From the NCBI GenBank assembly GCA_028223895.1, contig JAOIVE010000002.1, positions 1,463-65,462 on the forward strand: a stretch of 64,000 bases of DNA. Direction: 5' to 3'. How positions within the stretch are numbered: position 1 is the stretch's first letter; every line of letters begins with the position of its first letter. This document shows positions 15,018 through 57,551 of this stretch, piece after piece. Origin of the DNA: Rickettsiales bacterium. Its GTDB lineage: Bacteria > Pseudomonadota > Alphaproteobacteria > Rickettsiales > UBA6187. A program made the translations under genes and the position numbers. Below the pieces are notes generated by a model that ran no database searches, was not told the origin of the DNA, and worked only from the letters and a program-made list of their open reading frames with translations.

Positions 15018-15094
15018 GGCGGGGTAGCTCAGCTGGTTAGAGCGGAGGAATCATAATCCTTAGGTCCGGGGTTCAAGTCCCTGTCCCGCTACCA
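15018..15094 (+). tRNA. tRNA with CAU anticodon (tRNA-Met; a lysidine-modified tRNA-Ile2 cannot be excluded)
   Basis: A hand-folded 77-nt cloverleaf. Acceptor GGCGGGG/TCCCGCT, D arm GCTC-AGCTGGTTA-GAGC, anticodon arm GAGGA-ATCATAA-TCCTT, T arm CGGGG-TTCAAGT-CCCTG, encoded CCA. Confidence 0.9.
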
Positions 15095-15121: not shown

Positions 15122-15193
15122 CTAGATAAATGGCACAAAGGGTATGCATGCTGAGATTGCCAGAGCGCAAGCTATTAAAATAATAATTCTCAT
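15122..15193 (-). CDS. Candidate 23-aa lipoprotein-type micro-ORF (MRIIILIACALAISACIPFVPFI)
   Basis: Not in the ORF track (too short). AAGGA SD 7 nt upstream of the ATG. Signal-peptide-like sequence with lipobox ISAC. Same strand as, and just downstream of, the MNIO/DUF2063 pair. Confidence 0.25.
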   Translation of the reverse strand: MRIIILIACALAISACIPFVPFI

Positions 15194-15247
15194 AATTTAT
15201 CCTTAATTTTTTGAAAAAATAAACCCATTCTTTTTAGAATAATGGAT

Positions 15248-16033
15248 TTATTTTTTATTTATATCAAGACTGAAGTCAACTAAGACTCCCATTTGTATAT
15301 ATTTATTTATATTTGTAACCAAATCAAAATTTTCATTTATATCAGTTGCTGAATCAAATGCTTGATATAAGTTATTGTTATTAGATAATTTATCTAAGAA
15401 GTTATATTCGCAATCTTTTAATATTATAACATTTACCTGCATATCAGGGCGGGTGAGCATAAGTTTGATATTATCATCTTTTTTAAAATTATTATCTAAT
15501 TCTCCACTCATATCTTTTCTTGAAACATGCCATTTATGAAAAACTTTATAATCGCAAGAAAAAAACCTGGTAGATGGATTTAGTGTAAATTTGAGTTCAG
15601 AGTAGTCATCGGGTAATATTTTTGAGAATTTATCTACATCAAATGAAGGTGATTTATCGCAAAATATACTTTCTTGATAGAGACATTCAAGCCTTGCTAA
15701 GTTTGCAATATATTCTAAATCTCCCACCGGTTCAAAATTATCTAAAAAATCAGGAAAGTCACTCCCATATTCATACATATTAGGCTTTCTAGGAGGGTTT
15801 TTTTTAATATATTCTCTGCATGTAAAGTCAAAAAATTCTTTTCCGAGAGTTTTTTCTACCGCCGGAAAAGTCATTTTCATGGGAGATAATATATTACCAA
15901 TGCAGCTATCTTGATATATTCCAATTAAACTTTTAGCGCTAATATATTTGCTATTAAAATAATCTTTTGTAGATAATTTTTCATCTAATATATCATTTAT
16001 AAAATTTTGCTGAATTTTTTTTAGGCTTGTCAT
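15248..16033 (-). CDS. DUF2063-family protein (BufC-like partner of MNIO enzymes)
   Basis: Motifs IYQDS, FPAVEKTLGKEFFDF, YEYGSDFPDFL and ANLARLECLY match the DUF2063 pattern. Sits immediately downstream of a DUF692 gene, as in known MNIO operons. Confidence 0.8.
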   Translation of the reverse strand: MTSLKKIQQNFINDILDEKLSTKDYFNSKYISAKSLIGIYQDSCIGNILSPMKMTFPAVEKTLGKEFFDFTCREYIKKNPPRKPNMYEYGSDFPDFLDNFEPVGDLEYIANLARLECLYQESIFCDKSPSFDVDKFSKILPDDYSELKFTLNPSTRFFSCDYKVFHKWHVSRKDMSGELDNNFKKDDNIKLMLTRPDMQVNVIILKDCEYNFLDKLSNNNNLYQAFDSATDINENFDLVTNINKYIQMGVLVDFSLDINKK

Positions 16034-16036
16034 TTT

Positions 16037-16915
16037 TTACGCCGCCTTATTTTTATTTATAATATTTATTATTTTTTCAGCTTTATTTTTTTCTTCTAGT
16101 AAAATATCTAAGTCTGGTATGTCATTATCCCACTCAATCAATGTGGGGGTGTTAGCAAATTTTTTGGCAGCCTTTTTATATAAATCCCAAACTGGCTCAT
16201 ATACAGGACGGCTGTGGGTGTCAATTAACACATCCTGTCCTTCGACTTTTTTTGCTTCAAAGCCGGCAAGGTGCATTTCCTTGACTATATTTACAGGAAT
16301 TTGTTCAAGGTAATTTTCTGCATCAAAATCATGATTATAAGAGCTGACAAAAATATTATTTATATCCAGTAATATTCCACAGCCAGTTTTTTTAGCCAGG
16401 CTAGATAAAAACTCCCACTCATTTATATTAGAGTTTTTATATGAAATATAGGCAGAAGGATTTTCGATCAATATTTGCCGATTTAAAAAATTCTGAACAT
16501 AGTTGATATTTTCTGCAAATATATCAAAGGCTTCCTGTGTGTAAGGTATGGGCAGCAAATCAGGTAAATAGATTTTTTCTTCTGACGTACTCCACGATAA
16601 ATGATCTGAAACTAAAGATGGTTCAAAATAATCGATCGTAGCCTTAATTTTCTTTAAATGCTCTTTGCGAATTGAACAATTGGTTGATGCTGATCCTAAA
16701 GACATACCTATAGAATGGGCTGATATAGGGTAATCTCTTCTGATTTTTTCAAGATGTTTAGAAGGAGGGCTTCCTAAAGCAAAATAGTTTTCTGTGTGAA
16801 TTTCAAGCCATGGGACATTTGGCTTATCTTCTATGAAATTTTTAAAATGCTGATGACGCAGCCCAAGGCCAACACCTGAGATATTATTTTTACAAAAAAT
16901 GGCTTCGTCAATCAT
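16037..16915 (-). CDS. DUF692 / MNIO-family (MbnB/BufB-like multinuclear non-heme iron oxidative) enzyme
   Basis: GVGLGLRHQHF, WLEIHTENYF, SAHSIGMSLGS, VSDHLSW, LIENPSAYI, GCGILLDINNIFVSSYNH and HLAG motifs typical of UPF0276/DUF692. Confidence 0.88.
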   Translation of the reverse strand: MIDEAIFCKNNISGVGLGLRHQHFKNFIEDKPNVPWLEIHTENYFALGSPPSKHLEKIRRDYPISAHSIGMSLGSASTNCSIRKEHLKKIKATIDYFEPSLVSDHLSWSTSEEKIYLPDLLPIPYTQEAFDIFAENINYVQNFLNRQILIENPSAYISYKNSNINEWEFLSSLAKKTGCGILLDINNIFVSSYNHDFDAENYLEQIPVNIVKEMHLAGFEAKKVEGQDVLIDTHSRPVYEPVWDLYKKAAKKFANTPTLIEWDNDIPDLDILLEEKNKAEKIINIINKNKAA

Positions 16916-17060
16916 GAAAATCTCTTTTTTATAAGTAAGTTAGGTATAACTTATAAATCTATCAATTAACAAGTTTTATATAATTTATTTTCTTCAAAGA
17001 TACTTAATTTATAATGTTTAGCTATTGTTGAAATGCTTAAAGATAAGTGATAGTTAATAT

Positions 17061-18395
17061 ATGTTCAAAAAAATTTGTTATTGGTCAGTGAAAAACTTAT
17101 TTGAAGATAATATAGTTGAAAATGATAATTTGGCTCGCCCTTTAGCCGATTGTGTGCGTCCATCTTCTTTGGATGAAATATTTGGTCAGGATCATTTATT
17201 GGCAAAAGATGGTTCATTATCCAGATTGTTAGATAAGGGCTATTTGCCTAGCATAATATTATGGGGAACTCCAGGCTGCGGAAAAACAACTTTAGCAAGG
17301 CTTTTAGCTGATAAATGCGGATATAAATTTGATAGTGTATCTGCTGTTGCAAATGGTGCTGCTGATTTGCGTAAAATATTTCAGAAAGCTCAGGACTATA
17401 AAAAAATAGGTGAGCAGACCTTATTAATGGTAGATGAGATTCACCGTTTTAATCGTGCGCAGCAAGACTTATTTCTGCCATATGTTGAAGATGGAACAAT
17501 AATATTAGTTGGGGCGACAACGGAAAACCCATCATTTGAATTAAATGCGGCATTATTATCAAGATGTAAAGTTCTTGTTTTAAATGCTTTGGATGTTGAT
17601 TCTTTAAAAAAATTAATAAGCCGTGCAGAAGAATTTAAGGGTAGGGAGCTGCCTTTGGATGAAGATGCGCGACAAATTTTGTGTGAAATGGCCGATGGCG
17701 ATGGCCGTTATCTTCTGGGTATGTGTGAAGAATTATTTTATATAAAGAATGATAAATTAATTTCTCCTGAAGAACTGCCTGGCATTATTCAAAAGCGCTT
17801 TCCTATATATGATAAGAATCATGATGGGCATTATAATTTAATCAGCGCGTTACATAAATCATTGCGAGGGTCAGACCCTGATGCTGCGTTATATTGGTTT
17901 GCAAGAATGGCAGATGCCGGTGAAGATATGTTATATATAGCAAGGCGTCTTGTGCGGTTCGCTGTTGAAGATATAGGGCTTGCTGATCCACAAAGCCTGG
18001 TTCAGGCAAATGCAGCTAAAGATGCTTATCAGTTTTTAGGATCGCCTGAAGGTGATTTGGCAATATCTCAGGCTGTAGTTTATTTGGCAACTGCTCCAAA
18101 ATCTAATGCTGTATATAAGGCGCATAATGAAGTTATGCGTGATGCAAAACGTTATAGTTCAATTATGCCACCAAAACATATTTTAAATGCTCCAACTAAA
18201 TTAATGAAAGAGCAGGGATATAAAGATGGTTATATATATGATCATGATACGCCAGAATGTTTTTCCGGTCAGGATTATTTTCCAGAAGATATGGGGAGGC
18301 GTGAATATTATCTGCCAGTAGAGCGCGGTTATGAGCGCGAGATAAAAAAGCGTGTGGATTATTGGAACAAATTGAGGCAAAAAAAATCATGTTAA
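17061..18395 (+). CDS. rarA: Replication-associated recombination protein A (AAA+ ATPase)
   Basis: Walker A GTPGCGKTTLA, Walker B LLMVDEIHRFN, and the C-terminal MgsA motif SALHKSLRGSDPDAALYW. Confidence 0.93.
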   Translation: MFKKICYWSVKNLFEDNIVENDNLARPLADCVRPSSLDEIFGQDHLLAKDGSLSRLLDKGYLPSIILWGTPGCGKTTLARLLADKCGYKFDSVSAVANGAADLRKIFQKAQDYKKIGEQTLLMVDEIHRFNRAQQDLFLPYVEDGTIILVGATTENPSFELNAALLSRCKVLVLNALDVDSLKKLISRAEEFKGRELPLDEDARQILCEMADGDGRYLLGMCEELFYIKNDKLISPEELPGIIQKRFPIYDKNHDGHYNLISALHKSLRGSDPDAALYWFARMADAGEDMLYIARRLVRFAVEDIGLADPQSLVQANAAKDAYQFLGSPEGDLAISQAVVYLATAPKSNAVYKAHNEVMRDAKRYSSIMPPKHILNAPTKLMKEQGYKDGYIYDHDTPECFSGQDYFPEDMGRREYYLPVERGYEREIKKRVDYWNKLRQKKSC

Positions 18396-18769
18396 CTTTT
18401 CTTTTGGTTGGTTTAGGCGGAGCAATAGGTGCTATGGGGCGATATTTTACTGTAAGTAAAATAAGTAATATTGCAGGACATGGTTTTCCTTATGGAACTT
18501 TATGTGTAAATGTTTTTGGGTCACTTTTTATGGGTATGCTGATCGCTTATCTTGTAAAAACACTACCTCACTCAAATGAGCTAAGAGCATTTTTGGCAGT
18601 GGGAATACTTGGCGGCTTTACAACATTTTCTGCTTTTTCGCTTGATGCTATATCTTTGTTTGAAAAAGGTCTTATATTACAGTCGGCTATATATGTTATA
18701 TCATCTGTAGCATTATCTATTTTTGCGGTATTTTTAGGTCTTTATATGGTTAGGTTTATTTCTATATGA
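18389..18769 (+). CDS. crcB: Fluoride ion channel CrcB/Fluc
   Basis: The ATG at 18389 (MLTFLLVGLGGAIGA) is more plausible than the track start 18362. GTLCVNVFGS and GGFTTFS motifs. Overlaps the rarA end. Confidence 0.9.
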   Translation: MLTFLLVGLGGAIGAMGRYFTVSKISNIAGHGFPYGTLCVNVFGSLFMGMLIAYLVKTLPHSNELRAFLAVGILGGFTTFSAFSLDAISLFEKGLILQSAIYVISSVALSIFAVFLGLYMVRFISI

Positions 18770-19707
18770 CAAAAGTTGAAATGGTAAAAGTATCAGATGA
18801 TGATGGTGATATCAGGGTTGATCGCTGGTTTAAGCGTAACTATCCGAATATATCTCATTCTGCTATAGAAAAAGCCTTAAGAAAAGGCCAGATAAGAGTT
18901 GATGGCAAGAAAACTAAATCAAATGAACGTGTACAAGCAGGGCAGGAAATAAGAGTTCCTCCATTTGATAGTAAGGTTAAGGCACATAATGAGTCAGAAA
19001 AGAAAATATTAAATTTATCTAAAAAGCAATTAGATGAATTTAATTCATGGGTGATATTTGAAGATAGTGACATTTTGGTTATAAATAAGCCTTCAGGTTT
19101 GTCCGTGCAAGGCGGAACAGGAGTAGGGAAGTCGGTAGATACTTTTTTATCTAACCTGTCAAAAGATGGTATTCAGTTGCGATTAGTTCATCGCCTTGAT
19201 AAAGATACGAGCGGGGTTTTAATAATTGCTAAAAATGCTAAAACAGCAACTTGGTTGACAGAATATTTTCGTACAAAAAAAATAAAGAAATATTATTTAG
19301 CTGTAACCAAGGGTATTCCTAAGCCTTTAAGGGGAGCGATTAATCAGCCTATTAAAAAAGACGATCAAGGCGCTCGCGAAAAAATGATATGTGCTGTAGA
19401 TGGAAAAAAATCTTTAACAAATTATATTACTATAGATAAGTCAAAAGATGTGGCTTTATTGCAACTTGAGCCTGAAACTGGCAGGAAGCATCAGATAAGG
19501 GTGCATTTATTATCAATAGGTTGTCCTATTTTAGGAGATGGAAAATATGGCGGGCGTGACGCTTTTATTGATAATTTAAGTAATAAGCTGCATTTGCACG
19601 CGCAAAAAATTGAATTTAAAAATCCGCATGGAAAAAAACTTTCTTTTACAGCTGGTTTGCCATATCATATTAAGGAGACCATAGGGAGGTTTGGCTTTAA
19701 AATATAA
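18766..19707 (+). CDS. RluA-family rRNA pseudouridine synthase (RluC/RluD-like) with S4 domain
   Basis: HRLDKDTSGVL catalytic motif, KxY and GRKHQIRVH motifs. N-terminal S4-like RVDRW segment. Confidence 0.9.
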   Translation: MTKVEMVKVSDDDGDIRVDRWFKRNYPNISHSAIEKALRKGQIRVDGKKTKSNERVQAGQEIRVPPFDSKVKAHNESEKKILNLSKKQLDEFNSWVIFEDSDILVINKPSGLSVQGGTGVGKSVDTFLSNLSKDGIQLRLVHRLDKDTSGVLIIAKNAKTATWLTEYFRTKKIKKYYLAVTKGIPKPLRGAINQPIKKDDQGAREKMICAVDGKKSLTNYITIDKSKDVALLQLEPETGRKHQIRVHLLSIGCPILGDGKYGGRDAFIDNLSNKLHLHAQKIEFKNPHGKKLSFTAGLPYHIKETIGRFGFKI

Positions 19708-19785
19708 TCTAATTTTAATTGGATTTTGTAAGAGATATGTGGCATTGTGTGCCTTCGGTTTTTGTTTAACAGTTTTTGGGTATTT

Positions 19786-20961
19786 ATGTTTTCATATAGA
19801 TTTTTACCTATATTATTTTTGTTAATATCGCTAATTGCAAATGATGCTCAGGCTAACCCAAAATATGCATCACTTGTTATTGATGCTGATACTGGTGTTG
19901 TTTTGCATCAGGAAAATGCTGGAAATTACCGATATCCTGCCTCTTTAACAAAGATGATGACTTTTTATTTAACTTTTCAGGCTCTGGAAAAAAACAAGCT
20001 AAGGATGAATCAGCGTTTAAGGATTTCATCAAGAGCTGCTGCTCAGCCGGCAAGTAAAATGGGCTTGAAAAGAGGAGGCAGGATTACTGTAAGAGATGCT
20101 CTGATAAGTACAATTGTTAAATCGGCGAATGATTCTGCGGTTGTTCTGGCTGAAGCTATTGCAGGAAGCGAATGGCAATTTGCACTGATGATGAACAGAA
20201 TGGCTCGCAGGTTGGGAATGAATCATACTCATTTCCGTAACGCAACAGGATTACATGATCGCAAGCAAAGAACCACTGCTTATGATATGGCGCGCCTTGC
20301 GGTTGCTCTGCGTCGTGATTATCAGAAATATTACTATTTATTTGATAGAACTAAATTTTTCTATAAGGGAAAAACATATTATAGCCATAATAATGTTGCT
20401 AAAAACTATAGAGGTGCTGATGGTTTAAAGACAGGGTATGTAAGAGCTTCTGGATTTAATTTGGTTACAAGCGCCAGAAGAAATGGAAGAAATATAGTTG
20501 GTGTTGTTATGGGTGGAAGATCAACTAAGCGCCGTGACAGACATATGGTTCAGCTATTAGATAGGGCATTTTATAAATTAGCCAGAGCTGAGCCGGTTAG
20601 AAGAAAGGTTTATGCAGGTTTTGTTCCTGTTCCCAAATTAAAGCCTAAAAAATATGATGAGGTTGCATCTTTAGCAGATGATAGTGCTGAAAAAGCTTTT
20701 AGAGAGCCTGATATTTCAAAAGTTCAAGAATCAGGCAGGGTTATTTCTTCTGCGCCAGAGGATGCTTTGTTTATGTCAAAAGAGGATGTGATGGGCTTGG
20801 AATTGATTTCTAAAGAGCCTCCATCTTCTGTAGCAAAGGAAAAAGATGAGGAATACCAAACGCGCTGGAAGCGGGATAAAAAGGGAGAAAAAGTTCCTAT
20901 GCCTTTTTTAAAGCCTGAAGTTTCTATTAGAAAGCCTTTCGGCAGAGTTGCCATAGGTTAG
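19786..20961 (+). CDS. D-alanyl-D-alanine carboxypeptidase (PBP5/6-type, peptidase S11) with long disordered C-terminal region
   Basis: Signal peptide from the ATG at 19786. SxxK (ASLTKMM), SxN (SAND) and KTG (LKTGY) motifs. The last ~120 aa are low-complexity. Confidence 0.88.
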   Translation: MFSYRFLPILFLLISLIANDAQANPKYASLVIDADTGVVLHQENAGNYRYPASLTKMMTFYLTFQALEKNKLRMNQRLRISSRAAAQPASKMGLKRGGRITVRDALISTIVKSANDSAVVLAEAIAGSEWQFALMMNRMARRLGMNHTHFRNATGLHDRKQRTTAYDMARLAVALRRDYQKYYYLFDRTKFFYKGKTYYSHNNVAKNYRGADGLKTGYVRASGFNLVTSARRNGRNIVGVVMGGRSTKRRDRHMVQLLDRAFYKLARAEPVRRKVYAGFVPVPKLKPKKYDEVASLADDSAEKAFREPDISKVQESGRVISSAPEDALFMSKEDVMGLELISKEPPSSVAKEKDEEYQTRWKRDKKGEKVPMPFLKPEVSIRKPFGRVAIG

Positions 20962-21012
20962 TTAAAATTATTTTAAAGTTAAAAAAAAGTCGCCTATCAT
21001 CTTAATAACAAA

Positions 21013-21036
21013 GCCCGAGATGTTTAATCGTCGGGC
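21013..21036. terminator. Hairpin between convergent genes (candidate bidirectional terminator)
   Basis: GCCCGA-N12-TCGGGC stem-loop between the PBP stop and the DAHP synthase stop. The flanking T/A runs are weak. Confidence 0.45.
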
Positions 21037-21075
21037 ATTTGTCGTTAATTTAAGTTTTAATACGCTATATTTAGG

Positions 21076-22449
21076 TTAACTTCCTCTTAGTTCTTCTGCT
21101 AGTAGGAATGCTAGCTCAATACTTTGTGAAGCATTTAATCTTGGATCGCAATGAGTGTGATAACGATCTTTTAAGTTAACTTCAGATATCGCCTGCGCTC
21201 CACCCACGCATTCAGTCACATTCTGGCCTGTCATTTCTATATGGATTCCGCCAGCATAGGTACCTTCAGATTTATGAATGTCAAATACACTCTTAACTTC
21301 TGCAAGTATCTTGTTAAATGGACGAGTCTTGTATCCATTTGGTGATTTTATGGTATTTCCGTGCATAGGATCACTTGACCATATGACATTGCGCCCTTCT
21401 GATTTTACTTTGCGAAGCAATGGAGGTAAAATTTTTCCAACATTGTCAGCGCCCATCCTTGAAATTAAGGTTAGTTTTCCTGCTTCATTTTCTGGATTTA
21501 GAACATCAATGATGCGAATCAGATCATCTGGATTCATAGTTGGGCCAACTTTCATACCCACAGGGTTTATAATTCCGCGCATGAATTCTACATGAGCTTC
21601 GTCAATTGCACGAGTTCTGTCGCCAATCCATAGCATATGGGCGGAGCCACAGAAATATTCATTAGTATGGCGGTTTTTGCGAGTTAATGCCTGCTCATAA
21701 TTTAATAGCAAGCCTTCATGTGAAGTATAAAAATCAGCCTGATTTATCTGGTCAACATTTTCAGGATTCAGGCCAAAAGCTTCCATGAAAGCCAGGCTTT
21801 CTTCAATGCGACCTGCAAGATCCTGAAATAGCTTTTTCTGTGGAGATTCAGTAATAAACTCATTATTCCACTGCGTTACATTTTGTAAAGATGCATATCC
21901 GCCATTAGTCAGCGCTCTTAAATAGTTAAGAGTTGAAGCCGATTGGTTATATGCTTTTATTAATCGTTTTGGGTCAGGAACACGAGATTCATCATCGAAA
22001 TCGATTCCATTAACCATATCTCCGCGATAGCTTGCTCTTTCTTGTCCATCGATAACTTCAGTATCTGCAGAACGAGGTTTGGCAAATTGCCCGGCAATTC
22101 TTCCAACTTTAACAACAGGTTTGCCAGCGCCATACATTAATGCAACAGTCATTTGTAGCATAACACGCAGATATTTGCGTAAATTCGCATCGCTATGCTC
22201 AGCAAAGCTTTCTGCGCAATCTCCGCCTTGCAATAAAAATGCTTTGCCATTTGCAACATCAGCCAGCTTTTTCTTTAGGGAATTTATCTCATGATAATGA
22301 ACCAGCGGAACTTTACCAGCCAGCTCTTCTTCAACTTTCTGTAAAGCTTCTTTGTCAGGATAGTTTGGCTGTTGCTTAATTGGAAGCTTCTTCCAGGAGT
22401 CAATTTGCCATTCTTTATCTTGTTTTTTAGTTTTTGCTTTACTACTCAT
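21076..22449 (-). CDS. 3-deoxy-7-phosphoheptulonate (DAHP) synthase, class II
   Basis: 457 aa. W..KP..QQP.YPD N-terminus, GDCAE, KPRS and DPMHGN motifs typical of plant-like class II DAHP synthases. Confidence 0.93.
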   Translation of the reverse strand: MSSKAKTKKQDKEWQIDSWKKLPIKQQPNYPDKEALQKVEEELAGKVPLVHYHEINSLKKKLADVANGKAFLLQGGDCAESFAEHSDANLRKYLRVMLQMTVALMYGAGKPVVKVGRIAGQFAKPRSADTEVIDGQERASYRGDMVNGIDFDDESRVPDPKRLIKAYNQSASTLNYLRALTNGGYASLQNVTQWNNEFITESPQKKLFQDLAGRIEESLAFMEAFGLNPENVDQINQADFYTSHEGLLLNYEQALTRKNRHTNEYFCGSAHMLWIGDRTRAIDEAHVEFMRGIINPVGMKVGPTMNPDDLIRIIDVLNPENEAGKLTLISRMGADNVGKILPPLLRKVKSEGRNVIWSSDPMHGNTIKSPNGYKTRPFNKILAEVKSVFDIHKSEGTYAGGIHIEMTGQNVTECVGGAQAISEVNLKDRYHTHCDPRLNASQSIELAFLLAEELRGS

Positions 22450-22527
22450 TATTCCTCGCTAATCTACTTATTCCTTTTATAGGCGGTGAGAATCTACTAC
22501 TTTTATTTTAGTTTTGGAAGGTTTTTA

Positions 22528-23376
22528 ATGATAAAAAAGACAAATAAGATTGTATTTCAGGGTGTTCACGGTGCTCATTCGGACTTGGCTTGCCGAAAAG
22601 CATTCCCTTATATGGAGACAATAGCGGTTAATTCTTTTGATAAAGCAATGAAAATGGTTGAGGATGCAGAGGCAGATTTATGCATGATTCCTATTGAAAA
22701 TTCTCAAGCCGGCAGGGTTGCTGAAATACATAATCTTTTGCCAGAGACTAATTTGCATATAGTTGGAGAATATTTTCAGCGTATTGAGCATCATTTAATG
22801 GCGCCAAAAGGTGCAGATATAAAAAAAATTAATAAAGTTTTTTCTCACCCGCAAGCTCTTATGCAATGTCGTAAAAATATTAATCAATTAGGTTATGAAA
22901 CTGAGGCTTTTTATAATACGGCAGGAGCAGCTGAACATGTTGCAAAGTTAAATGATCCAAGTAATGCCGCTTTGGCATCAGAACTTGCGGCAGAATTATA
23001 TGGCCTTGAGATACTTAAAAAAGATATGCAAGATGCCGATGATAATATAACAGTTTTTGTTGCAATGTCAGCAGAGCCTGCCGATGTGGATTATAATCCA
23101 AAATCTAAGGAAAAAATAATTACCAGTATTTTATTTACGGCAAGAAACATTCCCGCAGCTCTTTATAAATCTTTAGGTGGTTTTGCAACAAATCATGTTA
23201 ACCTATTGAAAATAGAAAGTTATATTCCTGCAGGGTCGTCGAAGACTGCGCAGTTTTTTATAAATTTTGAAGGGCATCCGCAAAAGAAATCTGTTCAGTT
23301 GGCGCTTGAAGAGTTGGGATTTTTCAGTAAGAAAATTAAAGTATTAGGTGTTTTTCCAGCATCAGAAGACAGGTGA
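22528..23376 (+). CDS. pheA: Prephenate dehydratase
   Basis: ATG at 22528 (the track start 22486 adds an unlikely leader). GVHGAHSDLA, IPIENSQAGRV, and a C-terminal ACT-like TSILFTARNIPAALYKSLGGFA. Confidence 0.9.
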   Translation: MIKKTNKIVFQGVHGAHSDLACRKAFPYMETIAVNSFDKAMKMVEDAEADLCMIPIENSQAGRVAEIHNLLPETNLHIVGEYFQRIEHHLMAPKGADIKKINKVFSHPQALMQCRKNINQLGYETEAFYNTAGAAEHVAKLNDPSNAALASELAAELYGLEILKKDMQDADDNITVFVAMSAEPADVDYNPKSKEKIITSILFTARNIPAALYKSLGGFATNHVNLLKIESYIPAGSSKTAQFFINFEGHPQKKSVQLALEELGFFSKKIKVLGVFPASEDR

Positions 23377-24659: not shown

Positions 24660-25418
24660 ATGAAAAAATATAATGATTTTTCCAAAGGTTTTTCGCTATT
24701 AGAGTTATCTATCGTTTTGGTTGTTATCGGGCTTTTATTTGGTGGTATATTGGCAGGTAAGTCACTTGCAAGAAATGCTGCTATTAAGTCCATGATATCT
24801 GAGGTGAATAACTTAAAGTCAGCAATTGGCCAGTTTAAATTGATTTATAAGGGGCTGCCTGGTGATATTACAAATGCTACGGGTGTTAATGGCTATTGGT
24901 CATCTGGAACGATGAATGGCGATGGTGATGGCCAAATAGATATAGAAACCAGTAATGAGCCTTTTGCAGCTTTAGATCAGCTGAATCTTGCTAATTTATT
25001 ATCTTCTGTATATGCAGGAACCTGGGGCAGTGGTTTTGTTCTTGGCGCAGCTTCTGGCGATAATGTGATTAGCTCAAAATTGCCGCAGGCTGGAATATAT
25101 GCAAGATGTTGCAGCACAACCGATTATTCAAGAAGTTTAGATTTTAAAAATCATGTAAATGTTTTTGCTGTATATACTGGTGATGCTACAAGAAGGATGG
25201 GTGTTGTAAGTCCGGTTGAGGCATATTCTATTGATGTAAAAATGGATGATGGAAATCCGGATTTGGGTTTTGTAGGAGGAAGTGGTTCATGGACAGGCGC
25301 TGCATATGCGGCAACTGATTGCTATACAAATACCGGTTCAAGTGCTACATATGATACAGCAGTTGCAAATAAGAAAAATCTTTTAGGGTGTCAGATGCAT
25401 TTTGCCTATGATTGGTAG
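24660..25418 (+). CDS. Type IV pilin / pseudopilin-like protein (prepilin-type N-terminal methylation domain)
   Basis: A GGGGGAG SD precedes the ATG. Leader MKKYNDFSKG|FSLLELSIVLVVIGLL with Glu at +5. C-terminal Cys pair (DCYTN...LLGC). Confidence 0.85.
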   Translation: MKKYNDFSKGFSLLELSIVLVVIGLLFGGILAGKSLARNAAIKSMISEVNNLKSAIGQFKLIYKGLPGDITNATGVNGYWSSGTMNGDGDGQIDIETSNEPFAALDQLNLANLLSSVYAGTWGSGFVLGAASGDNVISSKLPQAGIYARCCSTTDYSRSLDFKNHVNVFAVYTGDATRRMGVVSPVEAYSIDVKMDDGNPDLGFVGGSGSWTGAAYAATDCYTNTGSSATYDTAVANKKNLLGCQMHFAYDW

Positions 25419-27261: not shown

Positions 27262-30084
27262 ATGAGTGGTGGTAAAGAGTTTGGTTCTGAAGATGTGCGT
27301 GAAGAGGGAGCTGGTGTCGGCGGTGGTGTTAATTCTGAAGCTAGGCAGATAGCAGTAGAAATTCCTGATGAACAAGACCAACCAGATGTAGATCTTGAAC
27401 AAGTTGTAGCTCAGGAACGGGAAACTGGTGGCCATGTTGCGATTGAAGTTGATCATTCTGCTGCAACCTTAGAAGAGTTATTAAAAAGGCCAAAAGGTGA
27501 CCATGGTGCATTTATTAATAAACTAAGATCTTACTCAAAAGATGATGGTGAAGAGCTTGTTGCGGCTGCAAAGAAGATTTTAGAAGCATCAAAAAGCTTT
27601 GCTGTAGCGTCATATGGTTATGCTAGTAAGAAAATTTCAGAATACAAATCGGGTGTTAAGCCTGTAGGTGATCTGAGTGAGCCTTTAATTGATGATGATT
27701 ATGATTATGATGAAGTTGAGTTGGAAGAAATTGTTTCTAGTTATCCAGAGTATAGTGAAGAAACAAAGGTAAAAACTGAAGATTATGTTGTTGGAGTAAT
27801 AAACCCTGATAAGCAGCAAGAATTGCTTGAATTATTAAAAGAAGCAAAAGAGATTAATAAGGAAGGTGGCGGCAGAGGTAAGCGCATAGCGCGAGAAGTG
27901 CTTAAAAGCTTTGGGCCTTCATTTTATTTTGGGCGTGCAGGTGTGTTTGCAGGTTTTTCGTCTGCTGGTGTTATAGGTAGTATGATGGGTGGTATTGCTG
28001 CGACGACAGCGGGTTTAGAGGCTTACGAATATTGTAAATATAAATTTACTGTAGAAGAAAATGAAGAAAATTTCAAAAGAATGAAAGGTCTTATCAATAA
28101 AGGATATTTAACTCGTGATACATTAGAGTTCCTTACGCAGGCTGAAATATATAAGAAGCCATTATATCCATATTCTTTTGACGCTAAAACAAGAGTAGAT
28201 ATGGTTAAAAATGCATTGTCAGTATTTTTTACGGCAGTAGGTGGCCCTTCTGCTTTTCTAAAAGCAGGAGCGCTTGCTAACATTGGAAGGTTTTTTAAAG
28301 ACAAGGAAATAGGCAAGCGTGTAGATGAAATGACATTGGATATGGGATCTATATTGGGAGAATATTGTACAGATCTTGTTTTATCTGAATCTGGTGTGGA
28401 TGAAGATGAAATTGAAAATAAAAAAGTTCCAATAGAAAGATTAGGGTTATTTTCACAAATCATGCAGCTTATGCGTACTGCGGAAATCGTTCAGGCTCTT
28501 AAAAAAGGGGATGAAGAAGAAAAAGATGTTAAGCCTTCAGGTGATGAGTTAGATGTTGAAGAAGACGCTAAACTTTCAGATGCTAAACTTAAGCTCAGAC
28601 CTGGTTTCTCCGGACATCTTGATCAAAAAGATAATCCTAAGAATGCGCTTTCATCTATTTTAGATGATACTTTAGCTAAGGTAGGTGACGAAGGGTCTTA
28701 TTTTGCAAAAGTCATTAATTCATCTACTAGATCTTTACGCACGTGGGGTAATATTTCACTTGTGTTATCACAATTATTAAAAACGACAATTTCTTATGCA
28801 GAGGAGAGCACTCTTTTAAAAGTTTCTCCTTTGCTTGCGTCTATAGGAGCAACTTTAGTTGGAGCTTTAGTTAATTATAACAAAGATGAGAAGCAATATA
28901 GTAAAGAAATAACTGCGGTGATGGAAAAAGTACACAAAGAAGGAGGTGGTGCTGTAACTCTTAAAGATTTATCTACTTTATCTAGATTGGATGAATATAT
29001 AGACCTCGAAGAATCAGGTGTTCAGGCCGCAGGTGACTTTACTCTTGCTGCTGCTATTTATAGTTTGGATAATTTTCTCTCTAGCAGTCCTTCAAAGCTT
29101 GGTTTTCTAGGAGAATTGGGTGCCACAGTAGCATCTGTTCCTTCTTATTCAGAAAAATCACATTTTGATGAAGCACTTTCCAGATTAAATACTCAATTGG
29201 CAACAGTTGCCGCCACTGATGATAGTGTTTTTGATAGCTTAGCTGAAGAAAAGGAAACAATAGAAAAAGATTTTGTTCAGCAGTTAAGGAATAATCCGCA
29301 AGTTGTTGAGAAGATCAAAAAAAGCATGCAAAATTCAAAATATCGTACCAGCTCTTCTATGGTTGCAGGAATTGTTGGTGAGATAGTTAGCAATGGAATT
29401 TTAGGAGAGGATTCTGCGTTGCCGCCTATAATAGGTGGTGCGTCAACGGCAGGTGTATTTGCTCTGTTTGTGGTAGGAAAAGTCTTAAAAAATTCACTTT
29501 ATAAAGAGGACTCAGATTCAGAGCTTCACTTTGATAATGAAGTAGATCGAGTTCTTTCTTCTAAAGATTCTATTAAGGAGTTTTTAAAGGAAATTGATAT
29601 TGCTAAACTACATAAGCAAGAAGTTATAAATCCTAACCTTAGCAGAAGTGAAAAGGCGGCTGATCCATTAACGCTTAAGGGTCTAGCCTTGCTTGCTGGG
29701 TTTGTTGCGGTCGGGTTTACCGGAACTTCAGTTGCATTGGAGGCTTCTGGTGTTTCTGATAATTCTTTTGATCCAAGTTATTCAATTTCAATGATTAACG
29801 CCTTACCATTTTATCATGGAAGTTTGCCTCTAATGCAAGATAGGGTTGATCCTTCGCTTAGAAGAATGGAGCATCTTGCAAATTCAGTTGTTCGTGGGTT
29901 AGAAAAATCTAAATTATCTGAAGCTGACATCACTCCGGCTCCAAGTGAAGCGAGTCTTTCTGATGTTGATGTTTCTAGTGATATTGGCGAAGAAGGTGAA
30001 GAACTAGGTGCTGGTGTTGGTTTCGCTGCTGTTGAAGAAGAAAAGCGAGCGGGAAGGTCGGATTCTAGCCAAATAATGCCGTAA
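27262..30084 (+). CDS. 940-aa protein of unknown function; acidic termini and several Gly/Ala-rich hydrophobic (possibly bilobed TM) segments; effector/membrane-protein candidate
   Basis: A strong AAGGAAG SD. Long uninterrupted ORF with no family recognised and no N-terminal signal peptide. Hydrophobic blocks include GRAGVFAGFSSAGVIGSMMGGIAATTAGL and SSMVAGIVGEIVSNGILGEDSALPPIIGGASTAGVFALFVVG. Confidence 0.7.
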   Translation: MSGGKEFGSEDVREEGAGVGGGVNSEARQIAVEIPDEQDQPDVDLEQVVAQERETGGHVAIEVDHSAATLEELLKRPKGDHGAFINKLRSYSKDDGEELVAAAKKILEASKSFAVASYGYASKKISEYKSGVKPVGDLSEPLIDDDYDYDEVELEEIVSSYPEYSEETKVKTEDYVVGVINPDKQQELLELLKEAKEINKEGGGRGKRIAREVLKSFGPSFYFGRAGVFAGFSSAGVIGSMMGGIAATTAGLEAYEYCKYKFTVEENEENFKRMKGLINKGYLTRDTLEFLTQAEIYKKPLYPYSFDAKTRVDMVKNALSVFFTAVGGPSAFLKAGALANIGRFFKDKEIGKRVDEMTLDMGSILGEYCTDLVLSESGVDEDEIENKKVPIERLGLFSQIMQLMRTAEIVQALKKGDEEEKDVKPSGDELDVEEDAKLSDAKLKLRPGFSGHLDQKDNPKNALSSILDDTLAKVGDEGSYFAKVINSSTRSLRTWGNISLVLSQLLKTTISYAEESTLLKVSPLLASIGATLVGALVNYNKDEKQYSKEITAVMEKVHKEGGGAVTLKDLSTLSRLDEYIDLEESGVQAAGDFTLAAAIYSLDNFLSSSPSKLGFLGELGATVASVPSYSEKSHFDEALSRLNTQLATVAATDDSVFDSLAEEKETIEKDFVQQLRNNPQVVEKIKKSMQNSKYRTSSSMVAGIVGEIVSNGILGEDSALPPIIGGASTAGVFALFVVGKVLKNSLYKEDSDSELHFDNEVDRVLSSKDSIKEFLKEIDIAKLHKQEVINPNLSRSEKAADPLTLKGLALLAGFVAVGFTGTSVALEASGVSDNSFDPSYSISMINALPFYHGSLPLMQDRVDPSLRRMEHLANSVVRGLEKSKLSEADITPAPSEASLSDVDVSSDIGEEGEELGAGVGFAAVEEEKRAGRSDSSQIMP

Positions 30085-30112: not shown

Positions 30113-30141
30113 TTGACCTTTTGTACCAAAAATTGTACCAT
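30113..30141 (+). promoter_or_regulatory. Promoter candidate for the 35-aa peptide gene
   Basis: TTGACC-N17-TACCAT. Followed by the perfect inverted repeat TACAGTA-CA-TACTGTA (30147-30162) and an AAGGA SD. Confidence 0.45.
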
Positions 30142-30184
30142 AATGATACAGTACATACTGTAAAATATATAAGGATGTATCATT

Positions 30185-30292
30185 ATGAAAAATAAAATAT
30201 TTTTGGCACTTTCTTTGGCCGTATTGGTAGCTGTAATAGCTGAACCTTCATTAGCTAAAGATGGTTGCGGATTTTTAGGCTGCGGTTGGTAG
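30185..30292 (+). CDS. 35-aa secreted Cys-containing peptide precursor candidate (MKNKIFLALSLAVLVAVIAEPSLAKDGCGFLGCGW)
   Basis: Below the ORF-track length cut-off. AAGGA SD 9 nt upstream. Textbook Sec signal (n-region MKNK, h-region, c-region SLA|K). Own promoter-like element and a strong terminator directly downstream. Confidence 0.6.
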   Translation: MKNKIFLALSLAVLVAVIAEPSLAKDGCGFLGCGW

Positions 30293-30316
30293 TCCTATAA
30301 ATTTGAAAAATAAAAG

Positions 30317-30348
30317 AGCCTGGCTATTTATTTAGCCGGGCTTTTTTA
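30317..30348 (+). terminator. Rho-independent terminator after the 35-aa peptide ORF
   Basis: AGCCTGGCTA-N6-TAGCCGGGCT stem (one G-U pair) followed by TTTTTT. Confidence 0.8.
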
Positions 30349-30491
30349 CATCTGTAACAATCTAAATATTATTCTGATATTTACTAAGCATTTTCCTGTG
30401 GAAAACTAAAATTATAAGGTTGTCGTCAGGCTATATTAATTATAGTCTGTTTGATACTGCCTTGTTTTTTAAGTTACATGTGAGTTACATA

Positions 30492-31217
30492 ATGCAAGAT
30501 CTTGTGAAGATTGAAGAGGTTAGTAGGTCATTTGGGGATATTCTGGCCGTAAATAATATATCTTTATCGGTTAAAAAAGGTGAAGTTCTGGGTTTTTTAG
30601 GGCCAAATGGAGCTGGTAAATCTACAACTATGCGCATGATTACAGGTTATATCTCACCAACCAGTGGAAAAATATCGGTTTGTGATCGTGACATTTGTGA
30701 AGATCGTATAAATGCCCAAAAACATATAGGCTATCTTCCTGAGGGCGGCCCTCTATATGAAGATATGACGCCTGCTTCGTTTTTATCTTTTGTGGCAGAT
30801 GTGCGTAAACTGGATAATCAGTTAAAAAAGGCACGTATTGAGTATGTTGTAGAAAACCTGCATCTGTCAAAAGTCTGGTATCAGAATATTGATACTTTAT
30901 CTAAGGGTTATAAAAGGCGGGTTGCTTTGGCGCAGGCAATTTTGCACGACCCTGATGTGTTAATACTTGATGAGCCAACTGATGGGCTGGATCCAAACCA
31001 GAAATATGAAGTTCAGAATCTTATTTCTTCAATGTCTGCAAATAAATCAATAATAATATCAACTCATATTTTAGATGAGGTTGAGGCATTATGCTCAAGG
31101 GCAATTATTATTGATAATGGTAAAATTGTAGCTTCTGGGACTCCTAAGCAGCTGGTTGGAAAATCAAAAAATCTGACTGAATCATTTAGAAAAATAACAA
31201 GTAAAAAAGTGGCATGA
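30492..31217 (+). CDS. ABC transporter ATP-binding protein (ABC-2/GldA-like)
   Basis: ATG at 30492 (the track start 30420 is too long). Walker A GPNGAGKST, signature LSKGYKRR, Walker B LILDEPTDGLD. Confidence 0.92.
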   Translation: MQDLVKIEEVSRSFGDILAVNNISLSVKKGEVLGFLGPNGAGKSTTMRMITGYISPTSGKISVCDRDICEDRINAQKHIGYLPEGGPLYEDMTPASFLSFVADVRKLDNQLKKARIEYVVENLHLSKVWYQNIDTLSKGYKRRVALAQAILHDPDVLILDEPTDGLDPNQKYEVQNLISSMSANKSIIISTHILDEVEALCSRAIIIDNGKIVASGTPKQLVGKSKNLTESFRKITSKKVA

Positions 31218-31951
31218 TTAAAGATATAAAAGTTATATTTAACAGGGAGTTAAGGGGGTATTTTGATACTCCGGTTGCATATGTGTTTGTTGCAATATTT
31301 ATTTTGCTATCAGGCATTTTTACATTTTATCTGGGAGGGTTTTATGAGTCAGGGCAGGCGGATTTAGCTCCGTTTTTCATGTGGCATTTATGGCTTTATC
31401 TATTTTTAGTGCCGGCAATTTCAATGAGATTATGGGCAGAGGAAAGACGTTCGGGCACTATAGAATTTTTAAATACTTTACCAATTTCGACTTTGGACTG
31501 TGTTATTGGTAAATTTTTTGCCGCCTGGGCGTTTTGCGCGATTGCATTATTTTTAACATTGCCGATCTGGATAACAGTTAATTATTTGGGTGATCCTGAC
31601 AATGGCGTGATTATTGCCGGATATATCGGCAGTCTTCTTTCAGCCGGTGGCTTTCTGGCGGTTGGCTCTTGTATGTCGGCAACTACACGCAATCAGGTGG
31701 TAGCATTTGTTATTAGTATTACAGTTTGCTTCTTATTTATAGTTAGTGGTTTTCCTATGGTTCTTGACTTTTTTACAGGCTCCGGGATGCCGCAATTAAT
31801 CATAGATATGGTAAGTTATTTTAGTTTTTCCGTACATTTTGACGATATATCAAAAGGTATTATATCGATCAGTTCAATTATATATTTTGCATCTTTCATG
31901 GCGTTCTGGCTTTTTGTAACAGCCGTAATAATAGATAGTAAAAAGGCGTAA
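31214..31951 (+). CDS. ABC-2 family permease (GldF-like)
   Basis: ATGA overlap with the ATPase gene. Six-TM protein of 245 aa. The RE.RSGT.E motif (EERRSGTIEFL) is typical of ABC-2 permeases. Confidence 0.85.
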   Translation: MIKDIKVIFNRELRGYFDTPVAYVFVAIFILLSGIFTFYLGGFYESGQADLAPFFMWHLWLYLFLVPAISMRLWAEERRSGTIEFLNTLPISTLDCVIGKFFAAWAFCAIALFLTLPIWITVNYLGDPDNGVIIAGYIGSLLSAGGFLAVGSCMSATTRNQVVAFVISITVCFLFIVSGFPMVLDFFTGSGMPQLIIDMVSYFSFSVHFDDISKGIISISSIIYFASFMAFWLFVTAVIIDSKKA

Positions 31952-31958
31952 TATCAAT

Positions 31959-33818
31959 ATGTTAAAAGAATATTTTAAATCAAAACATTCAAGCTATATA
32001 ATTTTGGCAGCGTTCATATTATTTTTTTCTATAAATATAATAGGGCGTTATGGTCTTGATAAATATGACTTTGACTTTACAGAAGAGGGGATATTTACTC
32101 TTTCAGATGGAACAAAAAATATATTAGCTAAAGTTGAAGAACCAATTAAATTCAGATTGTTTTTTTCAAATAAGCTGGCAAATGGAATTCCTAACTTAAA
32201 GAGCTATGCTTTGAGGGTCAGGGGTATTTTAGAAAAATATGCCAGCTATTCTAATGATAATATAACGCTAGAAGTTATAGATCCTGAGCCATTCTCAGAT
32301 GAGGAAGATCTGGCTGTTTCCTATGGTTTGAATGGGGTGAAAATTGATCAGATTGGAACTAAATTATATTTTGGATTAGTTGCAACAAATTCAGTTGATG
32401 ATGTTCAATCTATACCTTTTTTTCATTTTAACAGAGAAAAATTTATTGAATATGATTTAAGCAGGTTGGTCTATGAGCTTGCAAATCCTAAAAATATAAA
32501 AATAGGAATATTATCAACAATTCCAATGCAGGGCAGCCCTATGATGGGAATTCCTGGTATGGGGGGTAAGGATTGGGGGATTTTAAGTCAGTTAAGAAAA
32601 ATGTTTTTGGTAGAAAATATAGCCCAAAATACAGAAGAAATTTCTAAAGATATAGATGTTTTAATGCTGGTTCAGCCGCAAAATTTATCTGAAGAAACAC
32701 TATATGCAATTGATCAATATGTTTTGAGCGGTGGCAAGGCAATGATTTTTGCTGACCCTAATGTTGAATTAACATCTATTGAGCCTGATAAAAGGGGTTT
32801 CTCTAAAAATATCAATAGGTTATTTTCTTCCTGGGGTGTGGCTATAAGTCCAGAGACAGTTGTTGGTGATCGCTTATTGGTGCGTGATGTTAAATTTGAC
32901 TCTGTTGCTAAAGGAGTGGTTGGCAATATAACTAATATTGCACTTACTCAAGATAATATAGACAGAGAAGATATTACAACAAGCATGCTCAAAACCATAA
33001 TAATGTCTTCTGCAGGAGCCATAAGGGAAACTAAAAATCACGAAACTAAAATAACTCCGCTTTTATATAGCAGTAATGAGGCGATGGAGGTGTCTGTAGA
33101 TAAGGTTGTTGGCGCTTCTGACTCTAACTTGCTTTTAAGAGAATTTGCTGCGCAAAATGAGTCATATGTTATGGCTGCAAGGATTACTGGGCCGGCATCT
33201 ACCGCTTTTCCTCATCATAATGTGAAGGCAAATCATATTTCTAAATCGAAAACACCTATAAATGTTGTTTTGATAACTGATGTGGATATGTTGCGCGATG
33301 ATTTGTGGGTTGAATATCAACGTTTCTCTGATTTTACTATTGCAAGGCCGATTTCTGATAATGGTGCTTTTGTGGTTAATTTGGCAGATCATTTATCAGG
33401 TAGTAGTGATTTGATAGGGCTGCGCGGAAGAGCTGTAACAACAAGACCATTTGATGTTGTTGACGATTTAAAGCGTAAAGCAGAAAAGAAATTTTTAGCA
33501 AAAGAAGATGAGCTGAAAATAAAGCTGGCGCGCACTGAAAGGCGTTTGGCGCAAATACAAAAAGATGCTCAGAATTCTTCCGGAGGAATTTCTGTATATA
33601 AAGCCAAGCAGCAAGATGCCATAAAGCAATTTACCGATCAGATGACAGATATTCGCAAAGAGTTACGAGGAGTGCGTGGAGAATTGCGCAAAGATATAGA
33701 GTCTCTTGGAGATTGGCTAAAATTTATAAATATTATATTAGTTCCTCTTTTAATTTTAATTGGCGCTATGTCTTTTGGTATTTATCGTCAAAAAAAGAGA
33801 AAACAGCAATCATTATAG
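31959..33818 (+). CDS. GldG-like ABC transporter auxiliary component
   Basis: 619 aa with N- and C-terminal TM anchors and a large periplasmic region. Gene order ATPase-permease-GldG-DUF4340 as in GldA/F/G-type clusters. Confidence 0.7.
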   Translation: MLKEYFKSKHSSYIILAAFILFFSINIIGRYGLDKYDFDFTEEGIFTLSDGTKNILAKVEEPIKFRLFFSNKLANGIPNLKSYALRVRGILEKYASYSNDNITLEVIDPEPFSDEEDLAVSYGLNGVKIDQIGTKLYFGLVATNSVDDVQSIPFFHFNREKFIEYDLSRLVYELANPKNIKIGILSTIPMQGSPMMGIPGMGGKDWGILSQLRKMFLVENIAQNTEEISKDIDVLMLVQPQNLSEETLYAIDQYVLSGGKAMIFADPNVELTSIEPDKRGFSKNINRLFSSWGVAISPETVVGDRLLVRDVKFDSVAKGVVGNITNIALTQDNIDREDITTSMLKTIIMSSAGAIRETKNHETKITPLLYSSNEAMEVSVDKVVGASDSNLLLREFAAQNESYVMAARITGPASTAFPHHNVKANHISKSKTPINVVLITDVDMLRDDLWVEYQRFSDFTIARPISDNGAFVVNLADHLSGSSDLIGLRGRAVTTRPFDVVDDLKRKAEKKFLAKEDELKIKLARTERRLAQIQKDAQNSSGGISVYKAKQQDAIKQFTDQMTDIRKELRGVRGELRKDIESLGDWLKFINIILVPLLILIGAMSFGIYRQKKRKQQSL

Positions 33819-33826
33819 GGATTTAA

Positions 33827-34855
33827 ATGAATCAGAAATACCAGCTTCGTTTATTTATAATAGCTATAATTTTTGGATTATTATCGCTTGTAATAGTTAG
33901 CAACTATAACTATTTGGCAAAAGAAGAAGATTCAGGAAAAATTTTTAACGAGCGCCTTGCAAAAAATATAAAAGATGCAAGCGGCATTAAAATAAGTCAT
34001 AAGGGTAAGGGCTTCAGCATCAAGATTGAAAATGGAGTTTGGGTTTTACCCGCTAAATATAACTATCCTGTTAAGGCCGACAAAGTTCATAACTTGATAT
34101 TAAGGGCTTCGCAATTAGTAATTCTTGAGAAAAAAACTGCTGATCCATCAAGATTTGAAGATCTTGATTTGGGAGATTCTAATAGCGACAAGTCAGAATC
34201 TATAACTGTTCATATCACAGCTGAAGATGGAAAAATAACTCTAGCTGATTTTATTGTTGGTAAATTAAGAAAAGGAGCTGGTGGTAATAAAATAGATTCA
34301 TCATTTTATGCAAGACATTCTGGCAAAAATCAAACATGGCTTGTAAAAGGTAATTTGGATGTTGATTTAGATGCCGATGCTCTTCTTGACACTAAATTTA
34401 TAAGGATTGCAAATCACAGAGTTAAAAGTGCTGATATAAATATAGTCAGCGGTAGAAAGGCGGTCAAAATATCACGCCAGGAAGCATCGGAAAATGACTT
34501 TAAGCTTAATAATATAGGCAAAAACGAGATAAATTCGCAAACTGCTATAAATAATATAGCCTATATTCCTGCGCGTTTAAGCTTTAAAGATATTATTCCT
34601 GAGGAGGATTTTAAGGCAAAAAAAATCTCTGTTGCAACATATAAGACATTTGATGGTTTGCGGCTGGAAATTTCTAATTATAAGAAAAAAGATAAATATT
34701 GGGTGAAGATAAAAGCCTATGCTGATAAAGAATCTTCTAATGAAGTTAAGGAAGAGGTTGTAAAAATAAATAAACTTGTTAATAAATGGGTATATCAAAT
34801 TGATGATAATATTGGTAAGGAGTTAGCTCCTGAGAGAAAATATTTAATAAAATAA
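33827..34855 (+). CDS. DUF4340-like anchored periplasmic protein
   Basis: Single N-terminal TM, 342 aa. Conserved position after the GldG-like gene. The family call is by context only. Confidence 0.5.
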   Translation: MNQKYQLRLFIIAIIFGLLSLVIVSNYNYLAKEEDSGKIFNERLAKNIKDASGIKISHKGKGFSIKIENGVWVLPAKYNYPVKADKVHNLILRASQLVILEKKTADPSRFEDLDLGDSNSDKSESITVHITAEDGKITLADFIVGKLRKGAGGNKIDSSFYARHSGKNQTWLVKGNLDVDLDADALLDTKFIRIANHRVKSADINIVSGRKAVKISRQEASENDFKLNNIGKNEINSQTAINNIAYIPARLSFKDIIPEEDFKAKKISVATYKTFDGLRLEISNYKKKDKYWVKIKAYADKESSNEVKEEVVKINKLVNKWVYQIDDNIGKELAPERKYLIK

Positions 34856-57533: not shown

Positions 57534-57551
57534 TTTAGCCTTTGTAATTTC

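Follow-up and report, generated by a model that had tools for sequence, protein, structure and literature searches.

The DNA analyzed here is a 64-kb stretch of a contig assigned to "Rickettsiales bacterium" (contig JAOIVE010000002.1; referred to as the window), which carries on its minus strand two adjacent genes, bufB and bufC, encoding a multinuclear non-heme iron oxidase (MNIO) of the DUF692 family and a DUF2063 partner protein, respectively. Such pairs are known as the maturases of bufferins (also called captophorins), which are the largest family of MNIO-modified RiPPs (ribosomally synthesized peptides with post-translational modifications) and form a widespread copper defense system. 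The bufB stop codon and the bufC start codon are only 3 nt apart, confirming the tight two-gene unit and the gene coordinates of the original prediction. The pair is surrounded by rarA, tRNA-Met, and purB, all of which are intact and lie on the plus strand, in contiguous sequence without N runs. A protein identical to the window BufB is found in NCBI under the name "Rickettsiales bacterium" (accession no. MDB2414271.1), encoded on a contig of 74,096 bp. As judged from its sequence, the locus is a maturase pair at the equivalog level and not a complete bufferin cluster; it does not qualify as a bufferin biosynthetic gene cluster because the defining adjacent precursor gene is absent. The features discussed below are listed in Table 1.

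TABLE 1 Maturase pair, surrounding features, small candidate genes, and stand-alone precursor genes in other assemblies
Feature	Position	Strand	Evidence or remark
bufB, MNIO/DUF692 multinuclear non-heme iron oxidase, bufferin maturase subtype, 292 aa	16037-16915	-	PF05114, NF050167
bufC, DUF2063/PME-type 1 partner protein, 261 aa	15248-16033	-	PF09836
tRNA-Met (CAT), locus boundary	15018-15094	+	ARAGORN; Rfam RF00005, 62 bits
Divergent bufB-rarA spacer, 145 bp, without precursor coding capacity	16916-17060	.	ORF scan
Weak hairpin and U-run over the bufC stop, possible weak terminator	15214-15256	-	Inverted repeat I4
23-codon ORF MRIIILIACALAISACIPFVPFI, lipobox-like ISAC (LAISAC)	15122-15193	-	AAGGA 8 nt before ATG
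35-codon gene, Sec-type signal peptide MKNKIFLALSLAVLVAVIAEPSLA and 11-residue two-Cys core KDGCGFLGCGW	30185-30292	+	
Stand-alone DUF2282/BufA1 genes, 103 aa, 4 Cys, intact signal peptide	L168 4739-5050; L170 10001-10312; L171 2178-2489		

The BufB sequence matches the MbnB_TglH_ChrH family (Pfam ID PF05114) with 337.9 bits over profile positions 1 to 262 of 263, the Pfam gathering score being 25. The subtype was called with the curated equivalog cutoffs of NCBIfam. BufB exceeds the cutoff of the model "MNIO family bufferin maturase" (MNIO_BufB, NF050167) with 362.2 versus 310 bits, whereas it stays under the cutoffs of the rival subtype models HvfB (225.7 versus 360), ApyH (68.6 versus 400), MbnB (62.4 versus 325), and ChrH (46.2 versus 600). 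Conservation was judged on 132 precursor-linked BufB sequences, in which 56 columns reach a conservation of at least 95%. The window BufB retains 55 of them, with G254A as the sole change, and is thereby within the range of canonical members, which have a mean of 0.65 mismatches over the same columns. The conserved set includes H67, H105, E151, D184, H215, D232, H234, and E261, all of which are retained; these His, Asp, and Glu residues are the presumed iron ligand positions, as in the structures of MbnB and TglH. N187 is also listed among the conserved positions (D184/N187).

The AlphaFold2 model of BufB, which was built on 24 sequences, folds into the xylose isomerase-like TIM barrel of the MNIOs, with a predicted local distance difference test (pLDDT) score of 81.3 and a predicted template modeling (pTM) score of 0.83. 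The top Foldseek match in the PDB is a DUF692 protein of the HvfB type (PDB ID 3BWW; template modeling [TM] scores 0.75/0.86), followed by TglH (PDB ID 8HI7) and MbnB (PDB IDs 7DZ9 and 7TCR).

The partner protein BufC carries the DUF2063 domain (Pfam ID PF09836) in its N-terminal part, at residues 7 to 97, with 66 bits and a cutoff of 27.2, so that the family memberships originally proposed hold for both proteins. The alignment to BufC proteins from canonical operons spans the full length of the window BufC (tblastn E values of about 1e-44 to 1e-47). None of the 10 columns that are invariant among 21 aligned sequences is changed in it, and of the 7 columns with 95% or more conservation among 114 canonical BufC sequences, 6 are retained. 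The C-terminal half, which in the family is a region resembling the RiPP recognition element (RRE), also aligns with canonical BufC and keeps conserved positions such as W168 and R195. The single-sequence AlphaFold2 model of the whole BufC has a pLDDT score of 32, too low for a reading of the fold. A search of the BufC profile against PDB chains, 3DEE included, gave no match at E values up to 1. Neither bufB nor bufC shows a frameshift or a truncation. Judging from conservation, the pair looks fully functional as a bufferin-type maturase, with predicted iron binding and O2-dependent oxidation.

The precursor gene that would be expected upstream of bufB is missing. The spacer between bufB and rarA contains no minus-strand ATG, as the original prediction had stated; this strand has three TTG codons, and none of its frames holds an open reading frame (ORF) of more than about 15 codons. 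The searches for precursor and DoxX genes covered the whole window. A hidden Markov model (HMM) of the DUF2282 precursor BufA1, built from 133 sequences and run unfiltered on every stop-to-stop segment, detected no DUF2282/BufA1 gene or remnant of one in the window, the best E value being 1.6. Searching the window by tblastn with 13 BufA1 proteins of the nearest relatives resulted in a single match under an E value of 0.4, which comprises 25 residues in the signal peptide region (E = 0.007). Neither a Cys-rich secreted small protein of the BUF_6/12Cys type, adjacent to bufBC or elsewhere, nor a precursor with EGKCG or Lys-Cys repeats is found in the 64 kb. A DoxX protein (BufD) is likewise absent from the window, in agreement with the original prediction (two DoxX proteins of the closest operons as tblastn queries; best E value, 1.8). 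The Rfam scan of the window for regulatory RNAs near the pair returned tRNA only. The inverted repeat over the bufC stop (19 nt, 89% complementary) folds with -7.8 kcal/mol (z score, -1.3), which alone is not significant.

To place this layout among its relatives, we gathered 80 homologous loci from species-representative genomes, 80 from metagenomes, and several more via the closest proteins. The layout counts are based on the 130 loci with at least 700 bp of sequence upstream of bufB. A DUF2282 precursor gene lies within 700 bp upstream of bufB in 119 of these, and relatives at 40 to 67% BufB identity nearly always carry it, which bears out the upstream precursor as the normal bufferin-type arrangement and means that the missing precursor in cis is not due to chance. 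Five distant loci (33 to 41% identity) have other Cys-rich precursors of the Lys-Cys type. Six loci are bare and represent five distinct sequences (L081, L085, L086 = L090, L087, and L088). The comparison of neighborhoods suggested with the original prediction therefore shows that the precursor-less layout of the window is rare, at about 5% of the sampled loci, but not unique. A further bare pair is found on a short contig (L169; protein P0003).

The BufB proteins of the bare pairs are 64 to 67% identical to the window BufB. The intergenic gaps at these loci, 15 to 257 bp, are too small for a precursor, and the surroundings differ, including a HemN-like radical-SAM gene, a U32 peptidase, a type I secretion system, an M3 peptidase, and glycosyltransferases. 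No other conserved neighbor is common to the bare-pair loci, and their flanks contain no GCG-type peptide and no shared small ORF with a signal peptide and Cys residues. One of them (L087) has a CopA-like P-type ATPase with YHS/HMBD domains 2.3 kb upstream of the pair. The other bare pairs are clearly under strong purifying selection, with ratios of nonsynonymous to synonymous substitution rates (dN/dS) of 0.056 to 0.083 for bufB and 0.096 to 0.153 for bufC, at dS values of 0.8 to 1.85. Purifying selection can therefore keep a bufBC pair functional over long periods even when no precursor gene is linked to it.

In neighbor-joining (NJ) trees, the window BufB joins sequences from three low-GC contigs (L093, L098, and P0006) with 63% bootstrap support, and these contigs carry complete bufA1-bufB-bufC-doxX operons. 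The window BufB is placed outside the smallest clade of the known bare pairs in 95% of the NJ replicates. The position outside this clade suggests that the loss of linkage in the window was probably independent of that in the bare-pair group, but the phylogeny is soft.

The genomic setting points to a break in gene order at the pair. Among the relatives of the window RarA, none exceeds 71% identity. Two of the closest rarA loci, from distant metagenome-assembled genomes (MAGs) named "Rickettsiales bacterium" (L172 and L173; RarA 67 to 71% identical), keep the gene order rarA-crcB-rluC-dacA downstream, and L172 also keeps 3-deoxy-D-arabino-heptulosonate 7-phosphate (DAHP) synthase and prephenate dehydratase (PDT); the conserved stretch in the window is 17061-23376. 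Upstream of rarA, both MAGs have degP or a hydrolase gene in place of bufBC, so that synteny is lost exactly on the side of rarA that faces bufBC, and the pair thus occupies a synteny break next to a tRNA gene. No integrase and no convincing att-like repeats (tRNA end) flank the pair. The original prediction had assumed a reduced genome, a premise that the gene content of the window does not support: it encodes DAHP synthase, prephenate dehydratase and dehydrogenase, and chorismate synthase for aromatic amino acid biosynthesis, genes for riboflavin synthesis, tripartite ATP-independent periplasmic (TRAP) and ABC transporters, and an Mrp-type antiporter.

Precursor genes that stand apart from a maturase are found in related genomes. 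A profile of the nearest BufA1 sequences leads to a group of 102- to 103-residue DUF2282 proteins whose cores are 75 to 79% identical to the BufA1 of L093, which, as in L098, is encoded in an operon with a BufB that groups with the window BufB. Two proteins of this kind are encoded by genes that stand alone, MDX1949913.1 in a Rickettsiales MAG (L168) and P0211 both on a 532-kb contig (L170) and in a read-set assembly (L171). They adjoin fliO/fliP in the low-GC, Rickettsiales-type MAGs L168 and L170 and also in L171, and no bufB, bufC, or doxX gene is present within 8 to 10 kb of them. Precursors unlinked to MNIO genes have also been described in the literature, as has a single MNIO-partner pair serving several precursors, and DUF2063 partners are described to accompany precursors with a signal peptide (PMC12452194). 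DUF2282 genes in genomes devoid of MNIO and partner genes are few (21 of 4,072; PMC12452194). For thiooxazoles to form in Caulobacter, BufB and BufC are both needed and together suffice, and DoxX, which is frequent in bufferin clusters, is not required (PMC11626156).

Since no precursor gene lies in cis, the pair would act in trans, and we lean toward a functional BufB/BufC maturase that works on an unlinked precursor. Most likely, another part of the genome encodes the substrate, a possibility already raised in the original prediction and now supported by the intactness of the pair, the selection on other bare pairs, and the unlinked BufA1 genes in related MAGs. BufB would be the multi-iron TIM barrel oxidase and BufC the DUF2063 partner that presents the substrate. 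By analogy to Caulobacter Buf1, the two proteins would form a cytoplasmic complex that binds a Cys-containing precursor with a Sec signal peptide and oxidizes specific cysteines to 5-thiooxazoles, with a loss of 4 Da each. The matured product would then be exported by Sec and chelate copper in the periplasm, acting as a copper buffer. In this organism the operon would be split, the precursor, most likely of the DUF2282/BufA1 type, being encoded outside the window, and DoxX, dispensable in the model system, would simply be absent. Both this chemistry and the presence of an unlinked precursor in the source genome are what we infer from the related systems.

Several observations weigh against a maturase acting in trans. 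No precursor was found for the source organism in the 64 kb searched, and the only Rickettsiales-named protein among the best 120 BufA1 homologues (MDX1949913.1) comes from an assembly other than that of MDB2414271.1. The lineage of the window has no close relative, with a best BufB identity of 67% and nearest sequences at 64 to 67%, and dS toward these is saturated, which makes dN/dS uninformative for the window copy. The bare pairs form an exclusive clade in the point-estimate NJ tree, but in only 31% of the bootstraps.

It is possible, though rather unlikely, that the pair is a leftover whose precursor was lost, or was not transferred along with it when it arrived beside tRNA-Met, and which is still intact but has no substrate and will decay. 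The location at a synteny break by a tRNA gene, where the rarA relatives carry degP or a hydrolase, would fit such an origin, as would the reported depletion of MNIO-partner clusters in Rickettsiales (PMC13097082) and the absence of a precursor across the whole window. A decaying pair is, however, at odds with the lack of frameshifts and truncations and with the near-invariant columns, which are retained in BufB (55/56) and BufC (6/7) within the canonical range; moreover, no integrase or att-like repeats lie beside the pair, and other bare pairs are clearly maintained by purifying selection. That an adjacent conventional precursor was missed in annotation or lost by misassembly seems very improbable to us. 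The source is a MAG contig, where such errors would be conceivable, but the sequence is contiguous with intact rarA, tRNA-Met, and purB around the pair, the bufB-rarA spacer codes for no peptide in any frame, and the bare layout recurs in independent assemblies, by which an artifact is largely refuted.

The substrate could also lie within the window or be of another kind altogether. Two small ORFs had been named as candidates in the original prediction, and neither of them gained comparative support. For one of these, the 35-codon gene (Table 1), the sequence context is suggestive: no other intergenic ORF of the window encodes both a Sec-type signal peptide and two or more Cys residues downstream of it, and the gene is preceded by a promoter-like site (TTGACC-17-TACCAT at 30113-30141) and a Shine-Dalgarno motif (AAGGA before the ATG) and followed by a strong terminator hairpin at about 30311-30348 (-24.2 kcal/mol; z score, -5.45). 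It therefore looks like a real gene by its sequence signals. The unit (30113-30348) adjoins an ABC-2 transporter operon (30420-34855) on its upstream side. As a minimal, unlinked type of precursor, the peptide would offer BufB two Cys-Gly sites for conversion to thiooxazoles. Such a role would agree with the association of DUF2063 partners with signal peptide-bearing precursors (PMC12452194) and with the related MNIO FonB, which acts on Cys residues that precede a small residue within xKCG repeats (PMC13097082), as both Cys residues of the peptide precede Gly. The N-terminus MKNK-IFLA also loosely resembles the conserved M..K.KF(L)AA with which nearby BufA1 proteins begin.

The evidence against the 35-residue peptide as substrate is nevertheless heavier than that for it, and we regard this role as improbable. 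The peptide has no relative among 1.84 billion representative proteins (HMMER; one spurious match to a repeat protein), although ORFs this short frequently escape gene calling, and nothing similar occurs in about 170 related loci. In L173, the orthologous ABC-2 transporter operon has no homologue of the gene on its upstream side. The gene is 13 kb away from bufBC, the peptide scores only 2.1 bits on the BufA1 HMM (E = 22), the window BufB belongs to the DUF2282-associated subtype, and the core has no Lys beside Cys, unlike the known repeat precursors. In a broader version of this explanation, bare bufBC pairs may mark lineages with substrates outside the known precursor families. Were the peptide the substrate, the product would be a secreted peptide of 11 residues with two thiooxazoles, a minimal metallophore without the DUF2282 scaffold, and it would represent a new, very small class of precursor for bufferin-type MNIOs.

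About equally improbable is a substrate that is not a small dedicated precursor, for example a larger exported protein with a Cys motif or a non-peptide target, which would give the pair a non-RiPP role. MNIOs are reported to modify large proteins in addition to peptides (PMC12452194, PMC13056109), and a dedicated cis precursor is found neither here nor at the other bare pairs. Against this stand the equivalog-level match of BufB to enzymes that neighbor DUF2282 in 119 of the 130 loci, the fact that no frame of the window encodes a DUF2282-like domain, and the lack of another conserved neighbor at the bare-pair loci. Nothing that we found points to the non-RiPP role considered in the original prediction.

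The second candidate, the 23-codon ORF next to tRNA-Met, has a strong Shine-Dalgarno motif and no family match (best E values, 0.3 to 0.4). It was rejected as a BufB substrate, as the mature sequence CIPFVPFI has no Cys beyond the lipidation site, and also as a DAG-RiPP-like precursor (compare PMC13056109), a mechanism that belongs to the ChrH subfamily and for which a mature Cys outside the lipobox is again lacking. The ORF may be spurious or may encode a tiny lipoprotein (8-residue lipopeptide).

Several further features of the window were noticed. Three genes, none of which adjoins bufBC, encode a Rickettsia-type 17-kDa surface antigen lipoprotein (50896-51378, minus strand), a metal exporter of the cation diffusion facilitator family (51515-52441, plus strand), and an ArsR-family regulator (36114-36473, plus strand); no metal-related genes beyond these were noticed in the window. 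Two long intergenic regions have no Rfam match, 63152-63627 (476 bp) and 57458-57884 (427 bp), the latter containing a DUF465-like ORF of 56 codons (57552-57722, minus strand). Three larger proteins have no Pfam match at an E value of 1e-5: a 940-residue ORF product (27262-30084, plus strand), a 252-residue protein with an N-terminus resembling type IV pilins or pseudopilins (KGFSLLELSIVLVVIG; 24660-25418, plus strand), and a 369-residue ORF product (62042-63151, minus strand). The contig L170 encodes a 931-residue protein with a faint AsmA match, which may be related to the 940-residue ORF product.

Among the known systems, Buf1 of Caulobacter vibrioides (bufA1-bufB1-bufC1-bufD1; PMC11626156) shares with the window the MNIO_BufB subtype and a DUF2063 partner encoded immediately downstream, whereas the window has neither a cis bufA1 nor doxX (bufD), and an unlinked precursor is presumed for it. 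Caulobacter Buf2 (bufA2B2C2) resembles the window in having no DoxX, and the functional Buf2 shows DoxX to be optional; it does have an adjacent 6-Cys precursor, and the window has none of that kind. The oxazolin, fontiphorin, and gonophorin systems (HvfABC and FonABC; also named captophorins; PMC11252979, PMC13097082) combine an MNIO and a DUF2063-RRE partner with Sec-exported Cys precursors, and the HvfB-type protein 3BWW is the closest solved structure to the window BufB. They differ from the window in the score of its BufB on the HvfB model (226 bits versus a cutoff of 360) and in the EGKCG or Lys-Cys repeat precursor, which the window lacks. Methanobactin MbnB/MbnC shares the MNIO fold and the Cys-directed oxidative heterocyclization; the window BufB reaches only 62 bits on the MbnB model (cutoff, 325), MbnC is not a DUF2063 protein, and no MbnA-like leader peptide is encoded in the window. 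The closest parallel in terms of organization is Legionella pneumophila subsp. fraseri, where the precursor and the MNIO/partner genes lie at different loci and modification in trans has been proposed (PMC12452194). Legionella-type genomes, however, also keep complete clusters, whereas in the window and the bare-pair group only the maturase pair is seen, without a cis precursor.

The split arrangement has thus already been noted in the literature from the side of the precursor. New are the source organism, a small group of bare pairs that selection maintains, and the conserved BufA1 genes that stand by themselves next to fliO/fliP. As the substrate is most likely encoded elsewhere, the locus represents an unusual layout of a known system and not a new system; the known chemistry and biology are unchanged, and the value of the finding is therefore incremental unless the substrate proves to be noncanonical. 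The locus also places a bufferin-type maturase in a lineage labeled as Rickettsiales, an order reported to be depleted of such clusters (PMC13097082).

Genome mining for bufferins relies on a precursor gene that adjoins the enzyme gene. Taken together, the locus of the window, the bare pairs, and the stand-alone BufA1 genes indicate that a bufferin system can be split across the chromosome, and mining based on gene neighborhoods would therefore under-count or mis-assign such systems. In a system of this kind, the BufB/BufC complex would have to recognize its substrate without the help of co-transcription.

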